Positions 7,852 through 57,508 of a DNA stretch of 64,000 bases are shown one piece after another (within the stretch, counting starts at the first letter, position 1; each line of letters opens with the position of its first letter). The notes below the pieces were generated by a model. It was not told where the DNA came from and made no database searches. It was given only the letters and a program-made list of their open reading frames with translations. The stretch lies in the NCBI RefSeq assembly GCF_988242995.1, contig NZ_OZ547043.1, one strand, 5' to 3'. The translations under genes and the position numbers were made by a program.

Positions 7852-8912
7852 ATGCATCGACAATCCTTTTTCCTTGTGCCCCTTATTTGTCTTTCTTCCG
7901 CTCTCTGGGCGGCTCCTGCAACGGTAAATGTCGAAGTACTGCAGGACAAACTCGACCATCCCTGGGCGCTGGCCTTTTTACCCGACAATCACGGTATGTT
8001 AATCACTCTGCGCGGCGGCGAGTTGCGTCACTGGCAAGCAGGAAAAGGATTATCTGCGCCGCTTTCCGGAGTGCCGGAAGTTTGGGCGCACGGGCAGGGT
8101 GGCCTGCTGGATGTGGTTTTAGCGCCTGATTTTGCTCAGTCTCGCCGCATCTGGTTAAGTTATTCCGAAGTTGGCGATGATGGCAAAGCCGGAACTGCTG
8201 TGGGTTATGGCCGCTTAAGTGATGATCTCTCAAAGGTGACCGACTTCCGCACCGTCTTTCGCCAGATGCCAAAACTGTCTACCGGCAACCATTTTGGCGG
8301 GCGGCTGGTATTCGACGGTAAAGGTTATCTTTTTATTGCTCTGGGCGAAAACAATCAGCGCCCGACGGCGCAGGATCTGAATAAATTACAGGGCAAACTG
8401 GTGCGTCTGACCGACCAGGGCGAAATCCCGGATGATAATCCTTTTATAAAGGAATCCGGTGCGCGCGCCGAGATCTGGTCTTATGGCATTCGTAATCCGC
8501 AAGGAATGGCGATGAAATTAATATCCCGCAAAAAGGCAAAAACTACGGCTGGCCGCTGGCAACCTGGGGAATCAACTATTCAGGCTTTAAGATACCGGAA
8601 GCGAAAGGGGAGATCGTCGCCGGGACCGAGCAACCTGTTTTTTACTGGAAAGATTCGCCCGCCGTGAGCGGCATGGCCTTCTATAACAGCGATAAATTCC
8701 CCCAGTGGCAGCAAAAATTATTTATTGGCGCGCTGAAAGATAAAGATGTCATTGTGATGAGCGTCAACGGCGACAAAGTGACAGAAGATGGCCGTATTTT
8801 AACGGACAGAGGGCAGCGAATTCGTGATGTTCGCACTGGACCCGACGGTTATTTATACGTTCTCACCGACGAGTCCAGTGGGGAATTACTTAAAGTTAGC
8901 CCACGCAATTAG
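7852..8912 (+). pseudogene. yliI: yliI (soluble aldose sugar dehydrogenase) disrupted by frameshift
   Basis: Two overlapping ORFs (7852-8667 and 8664-8912) carry the N- and C-terminal parts of one protein; total span 1061 bp is not a multiple of 3; frame switches just after ...NPQGMAM (~8518). Confidence 0.7.
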
Positions 8913-16476: not shown

Positions 16477-17013
16477 ATGCGTCGCGCTAACGATCCGCAA
16501 CGGCGAGAAAAAATTATCCAGGCCACGCTGGAGGCGGTGAAACTTTACGGAATACATGCTGTTACGCACCGCAAAATTGCTACCCTTGCCGGGGTACCGT
16601 TGGGGTCGATGACCTACTATTTTTCAGGAATTGATGAGTTGTTGCTGGAGGCGTTCAGCAGTTTTACTGAGATCATGTCCCGGCAATATCAGGCATTTTT
16701 TAGCGATGTTAGTGATGCTCAAGGCGCATGCCAGGCTATCACCGATATGATCTACAGCTCACAGGTTGCAACGCCGGATAACATGGAGCTGATGTACCAG
16801 CTCTACGCGCTGGCTAGCCGAAAACCGCTATTAAAAACGGTAATGCAAAACTGGATGCAGCGCAGTCAGCAAACGCTCGAACAATGGTTTGAACCCGGAA
16901 CCGCCCGCGCGCTTGATGCGTTTATTGAGGGGATGACGCTGCATTTTGTCACCGACCGTAAGCCGCTATCGCGCGAGGAGATTTTGAGGATGGTTGAGAG
17001 GGTTGCAGGGTAG
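16477..17013 (+). CDS. rcdA: TetR-family transcriptional regulator RcdA (YbjK)
   Basis: ORF trimmed to [16 protein letters not shown]..., 178 aa, N-terminal TetR HTH. Confidence 0.9.
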
Positions 17014-17032
17014 TAGATAAATTATAGGCAAC

Positions 17033-17111
17033 AAAAAACCCACCAACCTTGAACCGAAATGGCGGGGTTGATGGGCTCCACAAAATGGGGACATCAAAGA
17101 AAAGCAGTGGC
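17033..17111 (-). ncRNA. rybB: sigma-E-dependent small RNA RybB
   Basis: Reverse complement reads GCCACTGCTTTTCTTTGATGTCCCCATTTTGTGGAGCCCATCAACCCCGCCATTTCGGTTCAAGGTTGGTGGGTTTTTT, matching the RybB sequence as I recall it, with terminal hairpin and U-tract; located between rcdA and ybjL as in K-12. Confidence 0.88.
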
Positions 17112-17117
17112 ACTAAT

Positions 17118-17150
17118 TAAGACTGATGCCCTGCGGAAAAGTTCTGCGGT
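17118..17150 (-). promoter_or_regulatory. sigma-E type promoter of rybB (-35 GAACTT, -10 TCAGTCT-like)
   Basis: On minus strand: ...cagAACTTttccgcagggcatcagTCTtaattagtg immediately upstream of RybB +1; resembles the sigma-E consensus GGAACTT-N16-TCAAA. Confidence 0.5.
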
Positions 17151-17187
17151 TGTGCAAAAAAATTTCATTTTCAGGGCAACTTCAGTT

Positions 17188-18873
17188 TTATCCTAATCCT
17201 GGCCATACCATGACGATGATTGTCCCTGCCAGCGTCAGCAGGACGTTGGCGATTGCGTAAGTGCCCGCATAGCCCAGCGCCGGGATATTACTGCGAGCTG
17301 TATCACTGATGATCTCCATTGCCGGCGCGCAGGTGCGTGCGCCCATCATTGCGCCGAACAACAGTGCGCGGTTCATTCGCAATACATAAGCACCGAACAA
17401 GAAGCAGATAACCACTGGCACCAGACTGACAATCAATCCGGCAATCAACATCTGACCGCCAATCGCGCCCAGGCCGTTATTAATACCGCTACCAGCGCTC
17501 AGACCAACGCCTGCCATAAACACCATCAAGCCGAACTCCTTCACCATGCTTAATGCGCCCTGCGGAATGTAACCGAAGGTCGGGTGGTTAGCACGCATAA
17601 AGCCCAGCATAATTCCGGCGAATAACAACCCGGCAGCGTTTCCCATGCCGAAACTGAATGTGCTGAACTGGAAGGTGATCATCCCGATCATCAGCCCAAT
17701 AACAAAGAAGGCGCAGAATGCCAGCAAGTCAGTGACCTGGCTGTGAATCGAGATAAAGCCGATGCGATCGGCGATGGTTTTTACGCGACGGGCATCGCCG
17801 CTGACTTGTAAAACGTCACCTTTGTTAAGCACGACGTTGTCATCAATCGGCATCTCAATCTGGCTACGAATGACGCGGTTAAGGAAGCAACCGTGATCGG
17901 TCAACTTCAGTTGTGCCAGGCGTTTGCCAACAGCGTTATGGTTTTTAACGACCACTTCTTCAGTGACGATACGCATGTCGAGAAGGTCACGATCGAAAAC
18001 TTCTTTGCCATTACGGAAGCTGGGATCGAGTCGGGCGTGGGCGTCGGGGTAGCCTACCAACGCTATTTCATCGCCCATTTGTAGCACGGCATCACCGTCT
18101 GGATTTGCCAGAATCCCGTTACGCCGAATACGTTCAATGTAGCAGCCGGTTTGTCGATAAATACCCAGTTCACGCAGATTTTTGCCGTCGGTCCAGGCTA
18201 CCAGCTCCGGGCCGACGCGGTAGGCGCGGATCACCGGCAAATAAACCTTACGGTTGGCATCTGTGTCCAGGCCACGTTCGCGGGCGATTTGCTGGGCGCT
18301 GGTCTGTAAGTCCTGATGCTGCAATTTCGGCAAGTAACGCGCACCAACAATCAAACTCACCAGACCGATTAAATAGGTTAAGGCATACCCGAGGCTCAGA
18401 TTATCCAGTGCCAGTGAGAGCTGCCTGCTTTCCATGCCGGAATGACGCAGTGTATCGCCAGCACCGACCAAAACCGGTGTTGACGTCATAGAGCCTGCTA
18501 ACATACCGGCCGTCAGGCCAATATCCCAGCCAAACAGCTTACCTAACCCTAAGGCGATCACCAGCGCACTGCCAACCATCACCAGTGCTAACATTAGGTA
18601 ATTTTTCCCATCGCGAAAAAAAATGGAAAAAAAGTTCGGTCCGGCTTCGACCCCGACGCAGAAAATAAACAGCATAAAGCCAAGATTAAGCGCGTCGGTG
18701 TTAATGCTGAAATGTTGTTGGCCTAATAACAGCGATACGACTAAAACGCCAATGGAATTACCCAGTTGGATCGAACCAAGTCGTAATTTCCCGAGACATA
18801 GCCCAAGCGCGAGGACCACAAATAATAACAGAATGTAATTCCCATTTAACAATTCGGCGACGTTTATATTCAC
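17188..18873 (-). CDS. ybjL: putative transport protein YbjL (AAE-family transporter with tandem TrkA-C domains)
   Basis: 561-aa ORF, membrane domains flanking soluble central region; matches K-12 YbjL. Confidence 0.92.
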
Positions 18874-31075: not shown

Positions 31076-31807
31076 TTACTTCTGGAACCATTTGTTATAG
31101 ATGGTTTCGTAAGTGCCATCTTTCTTCACTTTTTCCAGCGCAGTGTTGAGTTTCTGCTGCAGTTCAGTGTTGCCCTGACGTACCGCGATGCCGAGGCCAG
31201 TACCGAAATAATCTTTATCGGTCACTTTATCGCCCACTGCCGCCAGTTTCGGGTTGTCTTTCAGCCACTCGGTGACCACTGCAGTGTCACCGAATACGCT
31301 GTCGATACGACCGTTTTGCAGATCCAGTTTTGCGTTCTGGTAGCTGTCATACGGAACGGTGGTGATTTCCGGGTGCTTATCCATAATGAACTTCTGGTGT
31401 GTCGTCCCGTTCTGAACGCCGACTTTTTTGCCTTTCAGCTGATCAACACTGGTGTATTTGCCTTGCTGACCCACAAACAGGGCAGAGTTGTCATAGTACG
31501 GCGTGGTAAACAGCACCTGCTTTTCACGCTCCGGAGTGATATCCATGCCCGCCATCACTGCTTCTACGCGACGGAATTTCAGGCTTGGGATCAGGCTGTC
31601 AAACGCCTGGTTAGAGAAAGTACAGGTTGCATCAATCTCTTTACACAGTGCCTGTGCCAGGTCGACGTCAAAACCAACGATCTGGTTGTTTGCATCAATC
31701 GATTCAAACGGAGGATAGGAGGCTTCGGTAGCAAAACGAATAGTTTCGGCAGCTGTGGCGGAAAGACTAAAACCTGCAATTAACGCGGCAATCAGAACTT
31801 TTTTCAT
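31076..31807 (-). CDS. artI: arginine ABC transporter periplasmic binding protein ArtI
   Basis: 243-aa ORF with signal peptide, paralogous to ArtJ. Confidence 0.93.
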   Translation of the reverse strand: MKKVLIAALIAGFSLSATAAETIRFATEASYPPFESIDANNQIVGFDVDLAQALCKEIDATCTFSNQAFDSLIPSLKFRRVEAVMAGMDITPEREKQVLFTTPYYDNSALFVGQQGKYTSVDQLKGKKVGVQNGTTHQKFIMDKHPEITTVPYDSYQNAKLDLQNGRIDSVFGDTAVVTEWLKDNPKLAAVGDKVTDKDYFGTGLGIAVRQGNTELQQKLNTALEKVKKDGTYETIYNKWFQK

Positions 31808-54181: not shown

Positions 54182-54502
54182 ATGGGTAAAACGAACGACT
54201 GGCTGGACTTTGATCAACTGGCGGAAGAAAAAGTTCGCGACGCGCTAAAACCGCCATCTATGTATAAAGTGATATTAGTCAATGATGATTACACTCCGAT
54301 GGAGTTTGTTATTGACGTGTTACAAAAATTCTTTTCTTATGATGTAGAACGTGCAACGCAATTGATGCTCGCTGTTCACTACCAGGGGAAGGCCATTTGC
54401 GGAGTCTTTACCGCCGAGGTTGCAGAAACCAAAGTGGCGATGGTGAACAAGTACGCGAGGGAGAATGAGCATCCATTGCTGTGTACGCTAGAAAAAGCCT
54501 GA
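54182..54502 (+). CDS. clpS: ATP-dependent Clp protease adaptor ClpS
   Basis: 106-aa ORF matching ClpS. Confidence 0.96.
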
Positions 54503-54532
54503 ATGCAGGCATAAAAATTGGGGGAGGTGCCT

Positions 54533-56809
54533 ATGCTCAATCAAGAACTGGAACTCAGTTTAAATATGGCTTTCGCCAGAGCGCGCGAGCACCGTCATGA
54601 GTTTATGACCGTCGAGCACTTGTTACTGGCGCTGCTCAGTAACCCATCTGCCCGGGAGGCGCTGGAAGCGTGTTCTGTGGATTTGGTTGCGCTCCGTCAG
54701 GAACTGGAAGCCTTTATTGAACAAACCACACCCGTTCTGCCTGCCAGTGAAGAGGAGCGCGACACACAGCCGACGCTGAGTTTTCAGCGTGTACTGCAAC
54801 GTGCGGTCTTCCATGTCCAGTCCTCCGGTCGCAATGAGGTTACCGGTGCAAACGTTCTGGTCGCTATCTTTAGCGAACAGGAGTCGCAGGCGGCATATCT
54901 GTTGCGTAAACATGAAGTCAGCCGTCTCGATGTGGTGAACTTTATCTCTCATGGCACGCGTAAAGACGAGCCGACACAGTCTTCTGATCCTGGCAGCCAG
55001 CCAAACAGCGAAGAACAAGCTGGTGGGGAGGAACGTATGGAGAATTTCACGACGAACCTGAATCAGCTTGCGCGCGTGGGCGGAATCGACCCACTGATTG
55101 GTCGTGAGAAGGAGCTGGAGCGTGCTATTCAGGTTCTCTGCCGTCGCCGTAAAAACAACCCGCTGCTGGTGGGGGAATCTGGTGTCGGTAAAACCGCGAT
55201 TGCGGAAGGTCTTGCCTGGCGAATTGTTCAGGGTGATGTGCCGGAAGTGATGGCTGACTGTACGATTTACTCTCTCGATATCGGTTCTCTGTTAGCGGGC
55301 ACAAAATATCGCGGCGACTTTGAAAAACGTTTTAAAGCGTTGCTCAAGCAGCTGGAGCAGGACACTAACAGCATCCTGTTTATTGATGAGATCCACACCA
55401 TTATCGGTGCGGGTGCAGCGTCTGGTGGTCAGGTCGATGCGGCTAACCTGATCAAACCGTTGCTCTCCAGCGGTAAAATTCGCGTAATTGGTTCGACAAC
55501 CTATCAGGAGTTCAGCAACATTTTCGAGAAAGACCGTGCTTTGGCGCGTCGCTTCCAGAAAATTGATATTACTGAACCGTCGATCGAAGAAACTGTTCAA
55601 ATCATCAACGGCCTGAAACCGAAGTATGAAGCGCACCACGATGTGCGTTATACCGCAAAAGCGGTGCGTGCAGCGGTAGAGCTGGCGGTGAAATACATTA
55701 ACGATCGTCATCTGCCGGATAAAGCCATTGACGTCATCGACGAAGCGGGCGCTCGCGCACGCCTGATGCCGGTAAGCAAACGCAAGAAAACCGTTAATGT
55801 GGCGGATATTGAGTCCGTGGTGGCCCGTATTGCGCGCATTCCAGAGAAGAGTGTTTCTCAGAGTGACCGCGATACCCTGAAAAACCTCGGCGATCGCCTG
55901 AAAATGCTGGTCTTCGGTCAGGATAAAGCCATTGAGGCGCTGACTGAAGCCATTAAGATGGCGCGTGCAGGTTTAGGTCACGAACATAAACCGGTCGGTT
56001 CGTTCCTGTTTGCCGGCCCTACCGGGGTCGGGAAAACAGAGGTGACGGTACAGCTTTCGAAAGCTTTGGGCATTGAGCTTCTGCGCTTTGATATGTCCGA
56101 GTATATGGAACGCCATACCGTCAGCCGTCTGATTGGTGCGCCTCCGGGATACGTTGGTTTTGATCAGGGCGGTTTGCTGACTGATGCGGTCATCAAGCAT
56201 CCACATGCGGTGCTGCTGCTGGACGAAATCGAGAAAGCGCACCCGGACGTGTTCAATATTCTGTTGCAGGTGATGGACAACGGTACGCTGACCGATAACA
56301 ACGGACGCAAAGCGGACTTCCGTAACGTGGTATTGGTGATGACCACCAACGCTGGGGTACGAGAAACTGAGCGCAAATCCATTGGTCTTATCCACCAGGA
56401 CAACAGCACCGATGCGATGGAAGAGATCAAGAAGATCTTTACGCCGGAGTTTCGTAACCGTCTCGACAACATTATCTGGTTCGATCATCTCTCCACCGAC
56501 GTGATCCATCAGGTAGTGGATAAATTCATCGTCGAGTTGCAGGTTCAGTTGGATCAGAAAGGTGTTTCTCTGGAAGTGAGCCAGGAAGCGCGTAACTGGC
56601 TGGCCGAGAAAGGTTACGACCGGGCAATGGGCGCACGTCCGATGGCGCGTGTCATCCAGGACAACCTGAAAAAACCGCTCGCCAACGAACTGTTGTTTGG
56701 TTCGCTGGTGGACGGCGGTCAGGTGACGGTTGCGCTGGATAAAGAGAAAAATGAGCTGACTTATGGATTCCAGAGTGCACAAAAGCACAAGGCGGAAGCA
56801 GCGCATTAA
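54533..56809 (+). CDS. clpA: ATP-dependent Clp protease ATP-binding subunit ClpA
   Basis: Trimmed to [14 protein letters not shown]..., 758 aa; two AAA+ modules ([16 protein letters not shown]). Confidence 0.96.
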
Positions 56810-57021: not shown

Positions 57022-57109
57022 GTTCACTGCCGTACAGGCAGCTTAGAAAGCCAACCGAAAGAAAAACTCGATTTTTATACCGTTCACTGCCGTACAGGCA
57101 GATAAAATG
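57022..57109 (+). CRISPR. orphan type I-F CRISPR remnant: two 28-bp repeats flanking one 32-bp spacer
   Basis: Repeat 1 GTTCACTGCCGTACAGGCAGCTTAGAAA (57022-57049) matches the E. coli/Yersinia I-F repeat; spacer gccaaccgaaagaaaaactcgatttttatacc (57050-57081); repeat 2 GTTCACTGCCGTACAGGCAGataaaatg (57082-57109) degenerate at 3' end; AT-rich leader-like sequence upstream; no cas genes in window. Confidence 0.82.
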
Positions 57110-57508
57110 CGAAAAAAAACTCGTACTTTCGTACGAGCTTTTCTTTAAATATGGCGGTGAGGGGGGATTGACTCGCTTCGCTCGCCCTGCGGGCAGCCCA
57201 CTCACTGCGTTCGTGGTCTGTCCAACTGGCTGCGCCAGTTGTCGAACCCCGGTAGGGGCTTCTCATCCCCCTTGGAGTGCAATATGCGAAAAAAAAGCTC
57301 GCACTTTCGTACGAGCTCTTCTTTGAATATGGCGGTGAGGGGGGGATTGACTCGCTTCGCTCGCCCTGCGGGCAGCCCACTCACTGTGTTCGTGGTCTGT
57401 CCAACTGGCTGCGCCAGTTGTCGAACCCCGGTCGGGGCTTCTCATCCCCCTTGGAGTGCAATATGCGAAAAAAAAGCTCGCACTTTCGTACGAGCTCTTC
57501 TTTGAATA
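57110..57508. repeat. tandem ~179-bp direct repeats (2 full units plus a partial third) each containing a tRNA-Ser 3'-end fragment and a terminator hairpin, abutting serW
   Basis: TGGCGGTGAGGGGGGATT recurs at ~57152, ~57332 and 57509 (the last is the intact tRNA 3' end); each copy is preceded by the hairpin + A-run terminator gcgaaaaaaaaGCTCGCACtttcGTACGAGC; units are ~98% identical. Confidence 0.85.

Follow-up and report, generated by a model that had tools for sequence, protein, structure and literature searches.

The 64,000-nt stretch of DNA analysed here (contig NZ_OZ547043.1 of assembly GCF_988242995.1; hereafter, the window) carries on its minus strand, between ybjL and rcdA, what is almost certainly the ordinary, sigma-E-driven chromosomal rybB gene of an E. 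coli strain. The locus has the family membership, the boundaries and the synteny of that gene, together with a promoter and a seed identical to those of K-12, a promoter core conserved across genera and a terminator stem that covaries; no sequence evidence against this explanation was seen. When the whole window was scanned with Rfam 15 at gathering thresholds, three matches were returned, one of them to RybB (RF00110). It lies on the minus strand at 17108..17030 and scores 104.1 bits against a gathering threshold of 40 (E 2.5e-20), with model positions 1-79 of 79 covered, i.e., without truncation. A permissive scan of 16800..17400 gave RF00110 alone, no other family appearing there up to E = 1. 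In the alignment to MG1655, the limits of the 79-nt K-12 gene (ncRNA rybB, b4417, annotated at 887979..888057) map to 17111..17033 on the minus strand of the window, so that the Rfam span is offset by 3 nt from the K-12-defined gene. The gene and its flanks are as follows.

17033..17111, minus strand: rybB, encoding the 79-nt RybB sRNA, GCCACUGCUUUUCUUUGAUGUCCCCAUUUUGUGGAGCCCAUCAACCCCGCCAUUUCGGUUCAAGGUUGGUGGGUUUUUU (RF00110; limits from K-12 b4417).
17011..17013, plus strand: stop codon TAG of rcdA, flanking rybB on one side.
17188..18873, minus strand: ybjL, flanking rybB on the other side and on the same strand.

Within the K-12 limits, the minus strand of rybB reads from GCCACUGC to GGGUUUUUU. 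The window corresponds to roughly 871-935 kb on the K-12 map, and rybB has been placed in the same intergenic position, from rcdA/ybjK to ybjL, in both Salmonella and E. coli (PMC1804206). A 301-nt query taken around rybB matches 5,422 of 5,426 complete E. coli genomes, in which the annotated neighbours are rcdA and ybjL; the 3' half of the gene alone (51 nt) is matched in 5,260 of the 5,426. The first-pass annotation of this DNA had reported a RybB sequence between rcdA and ybjL as a known element and had proposed an Rfam scan for the family as a check. That scan has now been run and gave the full-length match far over the gathering threshold, the flanking genes bear out the location, as in K-12, and a K-12 counterpart, b4417, is indeed annotated at the corresponding place. 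The span then proposed, 17033-17150, starts at the 3' end of rybB as set by b4417 and ends at position -39, and thus comprises the RNA plus its core promoter; its strand, previously unstated, is minus. The same annotation had held that the gene is missed by ORF-based annotation, and this is what is found in the RefSeq/PGAP record NZ_CP032515.1, which is 100% identical over the 301 nt and lists rcdA and ybjL with no rybB feature, unlike the curated K-12 record, which carries an ncRNA rybB. Since standard PGAP annotation leaves the gene out, RNA-family scans are needed to record rybB.

Three parts can be distinguished in the RNA.

17096..17111, minus strand: 5' seed or target-recognition region, read as single-stranded, which includes CACUGCUUUU and is identical to K-12.
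17037..17077, minus strand: Rho-independent terminator hairpin of 12 pairs, 17077..17066 with 17048..17037.
17033..17038, minus strand: 3' U-tract UUUUUU, the terminator tail, read from the sequence.

The 16-nt extent given here to the 5' seed region is reportedly that of Papenfort et al. in 2010. The RNA begins with GCCACUGCUUUU... and contains CRCUGCUUUU, the seed looked for in a member of RF00110 and one that is common to RybB, MicV, and VrrA (PMC6694218). Among 62 distinct homologues, nt 21-25 are near-invariant, and nt 1-20 are invariant by construction, being the search pattern. The minimum free energy structure proposes a helix between seed nt 2-5 and GUGG, which we rejected, as it lacks covariation and 19 of the 62 sequences disrupt it. 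The best reading is an unpaired seed, which is also what its function requires.

The terminator folds at -20.5 kcal/mol (z = -4.2) and includes one wobble pair, U17071-G17043. Over the 62 distinct RybB sequences, its stem is paired in 97.2% of cells, and 6 of the 12 pairs show compensatory changes, as in the double change CCCAUCAACC/GGUUGAUGGG versus CCCGAUAGUC/GACUAUCGGG. Taken jointly, the three helices tested gave a covariation of 0.254, compared to 0.135 in shuffles (a value of 0.254 being reached in 0 of 500) and to at most 0.093 when the partners were slid. The 3' part of RybB has served as an Hfq-binding scaffold (PMC6694218), and the U-tract is presumed to be the Hfq-binding 3' end.

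Upstream of the RNA, the following elements were recognized, the last of which lies beyond the span of the first-pass annotation.

17137..17145, minus strand: -35 element AGAACTTTT, matching the consensus GGAACTTTT at 8 of 9 positions.
17118..17123, minus strand: -10 element GTCTTA, matching the consensus GTCAAA at 4 of 6 positions.
17156..17165 (-54..-45), minus strand: A/T tract AAATTTTTTT, UP-element-like.

In the promoter, GAACTT (17144..17139) is separated by a 16-nt spacer from TCTTA (17122..17118), and 6 nt more lead to the G at 17111, all on the minus strand; the consensus sequences used here, GGAACTTTT and GTCAAA, are those published for sigma-E in connection with rybB and micA (PMC1804206). 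The -10 hexamer departs from that published consensus at 2 of 6 positions, and the K-12 hexamer does likewise. All 86 aligned nt upstream of the rybB start are those of K-12, with no base different.

Conservation of the promoter was assessed on 120 loci picked from a species-level genome collection with RybB nt 1-20 as the sole criterion, 117 of which had enough flank; these belong to many genera of Enterobacterales, including Escherichia, Salmonella, Citrobacter, Enterobacter, Klebsiella, Serratia, Yersinia, Xenorhabdus, Proteus, and Providencia, and positions were counted ungapped, at fixed spacing. Over the 117 loci, the values were as follows.

-33..-27, GAACTTT: 98-100% conserved.
-13..-10, AGTC: 93-100% conserved, with the G, T, and C of -12..-10 at 100% each.
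-7 and -6, AA: 100% and 95%, respectively.
-1, T: 100%.
-25..-14, spacer: variable, 39-69%.
-54..-45, A/T tract: A or T as the consensus, 58-90%, with the T at -48..-45 at 79-90%.

The window has the consensus base at all the conserved promoter positions, and the T/T at -9/-8, where its -10 hexamer is not canonical, is the commonest state among the 117 loci and is found in K-12 too. At the other end of the gene, the U-run is kept in 116 of the 117. Conserved cores on both sides of a variable spacer, at fixed spacing, are, as judged from sequence comparison, the signature of a selected sigma-E promoter. Thus, the sigma-E-like promoter that the first-pass annotation had seen upstream of RybB is upheld by its geometry, by its identity to K-12 and by its conservation in 117 loci.

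The motif in its loose form would be of little help by itself. GAACTT-N15-17-TCNNA occurs three times in the window, where chance predicts 1.17, and at least three were obtained in 13 of 100 shuffles, which is not significant; hence, the rybB promoter is judged real from its position, its K-12 identity and its cross-genus conservation and not from the loose motif alone. The two other matches lie at 31388..31415 (plus strand) and at 54209..54236 (minus strand), the latter within a 106-aa ORF (54182..54502) on the opposite strand, and given the three matches against 1.17 expected, we took both as chance occurrences and did not retain them as sigma-E promoters. A promoter/terminator scanner that has no sigma-E model and limits hairpin loops to 3-8 nt returned no terminator and, on the plus strand, a single weak sigma-70-like site. 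This negative outcome carries no weight, the RybB terminator being missed because its hairpin loop is longer than 8 nt.

The expected function of this promoter comes from published experiments. In E. coli, a rybB-lacZ fusion responds to RpoE by induction and to RseA by repression (PMC12249550), and in Salmonella lacking rpoE the activity of the rybB promoter is near background (PMC1804206). RpoE dependence would extend to the present strain by virtue of the identity of its promoter to that of K-12, whose sigma-E dependence is experimental. UP-element strength has been modelled for 60 sigma-E promoters, among which that of rybB ranks with the strong, active basal ones (PMC3326320); the AAATTTTTTT tract resembles a UP element and may act as one.

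The 3' end of rybB coincides with a second known element, an attachment site for P2-type prophages.

17017..17043, both strands: 27-bp attB core of P2 type (Felsduovirus), GTGGGTTTTTTGTTGCCTATAATTTAT on the rybB sense strand, empty.

This core takes in the final 11 nt of RybB (five stem bases plus the U-tract) and the 16 nt that follow, and it stops 3 nt short of the rcdA stop codon. No prophage occupies the site in the window: the rcdA stop (17013) and the RybB 3' end (17033) are contiguous, 19 nt apart. In about 1,200 of the 5,422 complete E. coli genomes matched by the 301-nt query (~22%), the match is broken near 17017, and in every case examined a P2-type prophage lies at the break, with ogr beside rybB and the integrase beside rcdA. 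The junctions of the prophage bear a 27-bp direct repeat, GTGGGTTTTTTGTTGCCT(GA/AT)AATTTAT, as seen in lysogen NZ_OZ392484.1. The attB core of the window is identical to the attL core of this lysogen, as to that given for lysogen DG351-2, and stands two bases apart from the prophage-side (attR) core of the examined lysogens and from the core of L183, an IMG/VR contig.

L183 is the one such contig in which the core is flanked by phage sequence on both sides, and its core is read as a probable attP. A further 56 viral contigs from the scan that gave L183 have an attR joined to rybB, and the annotated attR of Klebsiella phage 4LV2017 falls on the RybB match. Ahead of the core on the phage side lie the integrase gene and a short complementary segment (ACCCAT...GTGGGTTTTTT), so the phage copy looks like the 3' half of an int terminator. 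Since the phage supplies an identical 3' end, RybB keeps an intact terminator after integration. A further contig, L191 (IMGVR_UViG_2703718839_000004), has at 8001..8028 a phage-side core whose left flank belongs neither to rybB nor to the int side (...catcatgcaaaaaaaaTGGGTTTT...), which hints at a junction that was rearranged or at integration of this phage group at a secondary site.

The att site in rybB is already published. Under the name 'rybB ncRNA', it is the insertion site of a P2-type prophage in E. coli W, B, and Crooks and is empty in K-12 (PMC3032704); it is also defence-island hotspot #29, where only Felsduovirus prophages, integrated in rybB, were found in 109 genomes (PMC10121019), and it has an equivalent Klebsiella island in Kpn38RybB (PMC4048246). 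As P2-type prophages often carry defence systems, the empty, phage-compatible attB of the window marks a place for comparison with relatives of the strain. As a separate observation, about 12 nt past the U-tract (GTTGCCTGAAAT; window 17021..17032), beyond the point where the annotated RNA ends, are conserved in distant genera, namely, Citrobacter, Enterobacter, Buttiauxella, Serratia, and Yersinia (loci L009, L032, L044, L049, L056, L094, and many others). This conservation could possibly come from selection on the context of the terminator or from homogenisation by phages that carry the sequence in attP.

It is in this core that the window and K-12 differ. The RNA itself has one substitution, at 17043, where K-12 has A and the window has G, turning a U-A pair of the terminator into U-G and weakening the stem by 0.6 kcal/mol (-20.5 versus -21.1). 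A U-G at pair 17071-17043 occurs in 3 of the 62 distinct sequences, the window itself being counted, and no other species-level RybB sequence with a CCCAUCAACC arm has G at 17043. Nevertheless, of 5,262 matching complete E. coli records, 738 (~14%) have exactly this 51-nt 3' half, G included, and the G is a minority but common E. coli allele. In the 16 nt past rybB, four positions are unlike K-12 (17029, 17028, 17024, and 17021). Hence, all five differences fall inside the 27-bp core, with zero in the other ~185 aligned nt. Six empty-site E. coli alleles, few and selected by identity class, show the same tendency, 6 of their 7 variable sites over 311 nt lying within the core (binomial P ~3e-6, or ~1e-3 when only the 111 nt used for picking the sequences are counted). 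We did not find this clustering of substitutions in the cited literature on the rybB att site.

A possible origin of these variants, which we hold only tentatively, is that the 17043 G and the downstream GCCTAT allele are footprints of P2-type phage traffic, left by exchange or repair as the phages integrated and excised, or by recombination of an attL with an attR core, and did not arise by ordinary point mutation. This concerns where the variants come from and is compatible with an ordinary rybB. In its favour are the confinement of the window/K-12 differences to the core, the concentration there of the variable sites of the six empty-site alleles, the lack of the stem G in the other species-level sequences with the same arm and the frequency with which complete E. 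coli genomes are interrupted at this very point. Moreover, the core alleles form a mosaic (GCCTGA, GCCTAA, GCCTAT, ATCTAA..T, ATCTAA..C, and GTCTGA), in which the GCCTAT of the window differs from GCCTGA at 17025/17024 only. O157 strains and E. whittamii carry GCCTGA, like the phage-borne core, so the K-12 core, ATCTAA..C, looks derived. As for the stem base, the attL of DG351-2, i.e., the int-side arm of the prophage, has G before TGGG, and the attL of hubt-sl and L183 have A.

Several points stand against a footprint. A tyrosine recombinase that integrates and excises precisely leaves attB as it was, so that a scar would need an extra process. The bacterial halves of the DG351-2 attR and attL rebuild exactly the window allele, which is hence an attB allele used by the phage and fits a standing one. 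The stretch after the terminator is weakly constrained and could vary for that reason, and the sequences compared were, as said, few and chosen by identity class. Both A and G at the position of 17043 occur on phage arms and on host arms, and the attR junctions of the 56 viral contigs, 53 with A and 3 with G, are at about the host frequency, so that G is not linked to lysogeny. In its general form, recurrent P2-type phage traffic would rewrite the terminator end and the 3' flank of RybB, the core being a hot spot and the 17043 G a phage-derived base that might tune termination or Hfq binding; we regard this as doubtful. If true, the att core would be a mutational hot spot within a core-genome regulatory RNA, and the clustering is in any case a small lead on how phages may shape the ends of sRNA genes.

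Whatever its origin, the 17043 substitution raises the question of whether rybB could be silent or impaired in this strain, a variant in the promoter or terminator leaving the RNA unmade or badly terminated. The weakening of the terminator stem by this substitution speaks for such a defect, and a small effect of the G on termination or Hfq binding is conceivable. Nevertheless, a silent gene appears very unlikely: the 86 nt upstream of +1 are those of K-12 base for base, the affected pair is kept as U-G, as in the other sequences among the 62 that have it, the recurrence of this 51-nt 3' half in 738 complete E. coli records speaks against a deleterious allele, and the Rfam score is far over threshold. 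Finally, that the locus encodes a small protein instead of an RNA, from an ORF at 16949..17113 (minus strand, 54 aa, GTG start) or at 17059..17196 (plus strand, 45 aa), can be dismissed as wholly improbable, since both ORFs do appear in the six-frame list but the 62 homologues have 1-nt and 2-nt indels, an invariant 25-nt 5' block and compensatory stem changes, i.e., an RNA pattern whose indels and stem covariation rule out the overlapping ORFs as genes, the ORF at 16949..17113 runs antisense across the end of rcdA, and no CDS is annotated there in the records examined (NZ_CP032515.1 and K-12).

Other RNA elements were noted in the window, away from rybB. Two 28-bp type I-F CRISPR repeats (RF01317) lie on the plus strand at 57022..57049 (50.1 bits) and 57082..57109 (29.7 bits), identical over their first 20 nt and separated by one 32-nt spacer. 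They come just after a large ORF (54518..56809), which we take from the K-12 map to be clpA, and they resemble what is presumably the residual CRISPR array found between clpA and infA in E. coli strains without I-F cas genes. A tRNA-Ser(GGA) gene lies at 57509..57596, and downstream of it, at 57112..57523 on the minus strand, are two tandem 179-nt units, 99% identical, each having at its end a copy of the final ~18 nt of the tRNA-Ser and a hairpin. Against the Rfam family RtT (RF00391), these units score 41.6 and 38.2 bits, just under the gathering threshold of 45, and other E. coli records annotate them as 'RtT sRNA'. Strains appear to differ in how many units they have, as only 1,016 of 5,425 genomes cover at least 80% of the 661-nt stretch in one place.

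Returning to the ordinary, sigma-E-driven rybB, we propose the following working. Envelope stress would free sigma-E (RpoE) from RseA; RNA polymerase carrying sigma-E would then read the GAACTT-16 nt-TCTTA promoter and start at the G at 17111. Transcription would end at the hairpin and U-tract, at 17033, to give the 79-nt RNA. Hfq would bind the 3' hairpin and U-tail, leaving the unpaired GCCACUGCUUUU... end to pair with mRNAs of outer membrane proteins (OMPs), e.g., ompC and ompW, whose translation would be blocked and whose decay would be faster. The load of unfolded porins would thus fall, and this feedback would lower sigma-E activity. Sigma-E dependence, Hfq binding and target repression are taken, for this strain, from the literature on K-12 and Salmonella or from the near-identity of its RNA to that of K-12 (78/79) and should be read as expected properties.

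The first-pass annotation had concluded that this strain has an intact envelope-stress sRNA circuit. This stands for the rybB gene and its promoter; for the whole circuit, it goes beyond the evidence, the genes rpoE, rseA, hfq, ompC, and ompW presumably lying, on the K-12 map, outside the region of the window. The word intact also needs qualification for the gene itself, which is complete and not identical to the reference, having in its terminator stem the 17043 substitution with the pair kept as U-G. An intact rybB in an E. coli genome is expected and already known, the gene being a textbook sigma-E-dependent sRNA, and beyond annotation quality its finding here matters little.

Compared to known systems, the locus is closest to rybB of K-12, with which it shares the site between rcdA (ybjK) and ybjL, the 86 nt upstream, the seed and the hairpin with its U-tail, for 78 of 79 nt identical. 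As an attachment site, it has at the 3' end of rybB the same 27-bp core as Rybb*W, Rybb*B, and Rybb*Cr (of E. coli W, B, and Crooks, respectively), as hotspot #29 and as Kpn38RybB; the site is empty like that of K-12, whereas its core allele is five positions from that of K-12 and nearer to the phage-borne core. In its proposed regulation, RybB is like MicA and MicL, the other sigma-E-dependent sRNAs of E. coli, and MicV/VrrA of Vibrio, all of them Hfq-dependent sRNAs that are made from a sigma-E promoter and repress mRNAs of abundant OMPs or lipoproteins (PMC6694218, PMC4102768). MicA, MicL, MicV, and VrrA are, nonetheless, other genes, with other loci and other sequences, and the region of the window described here matches the RybB family, RF00110, alone.
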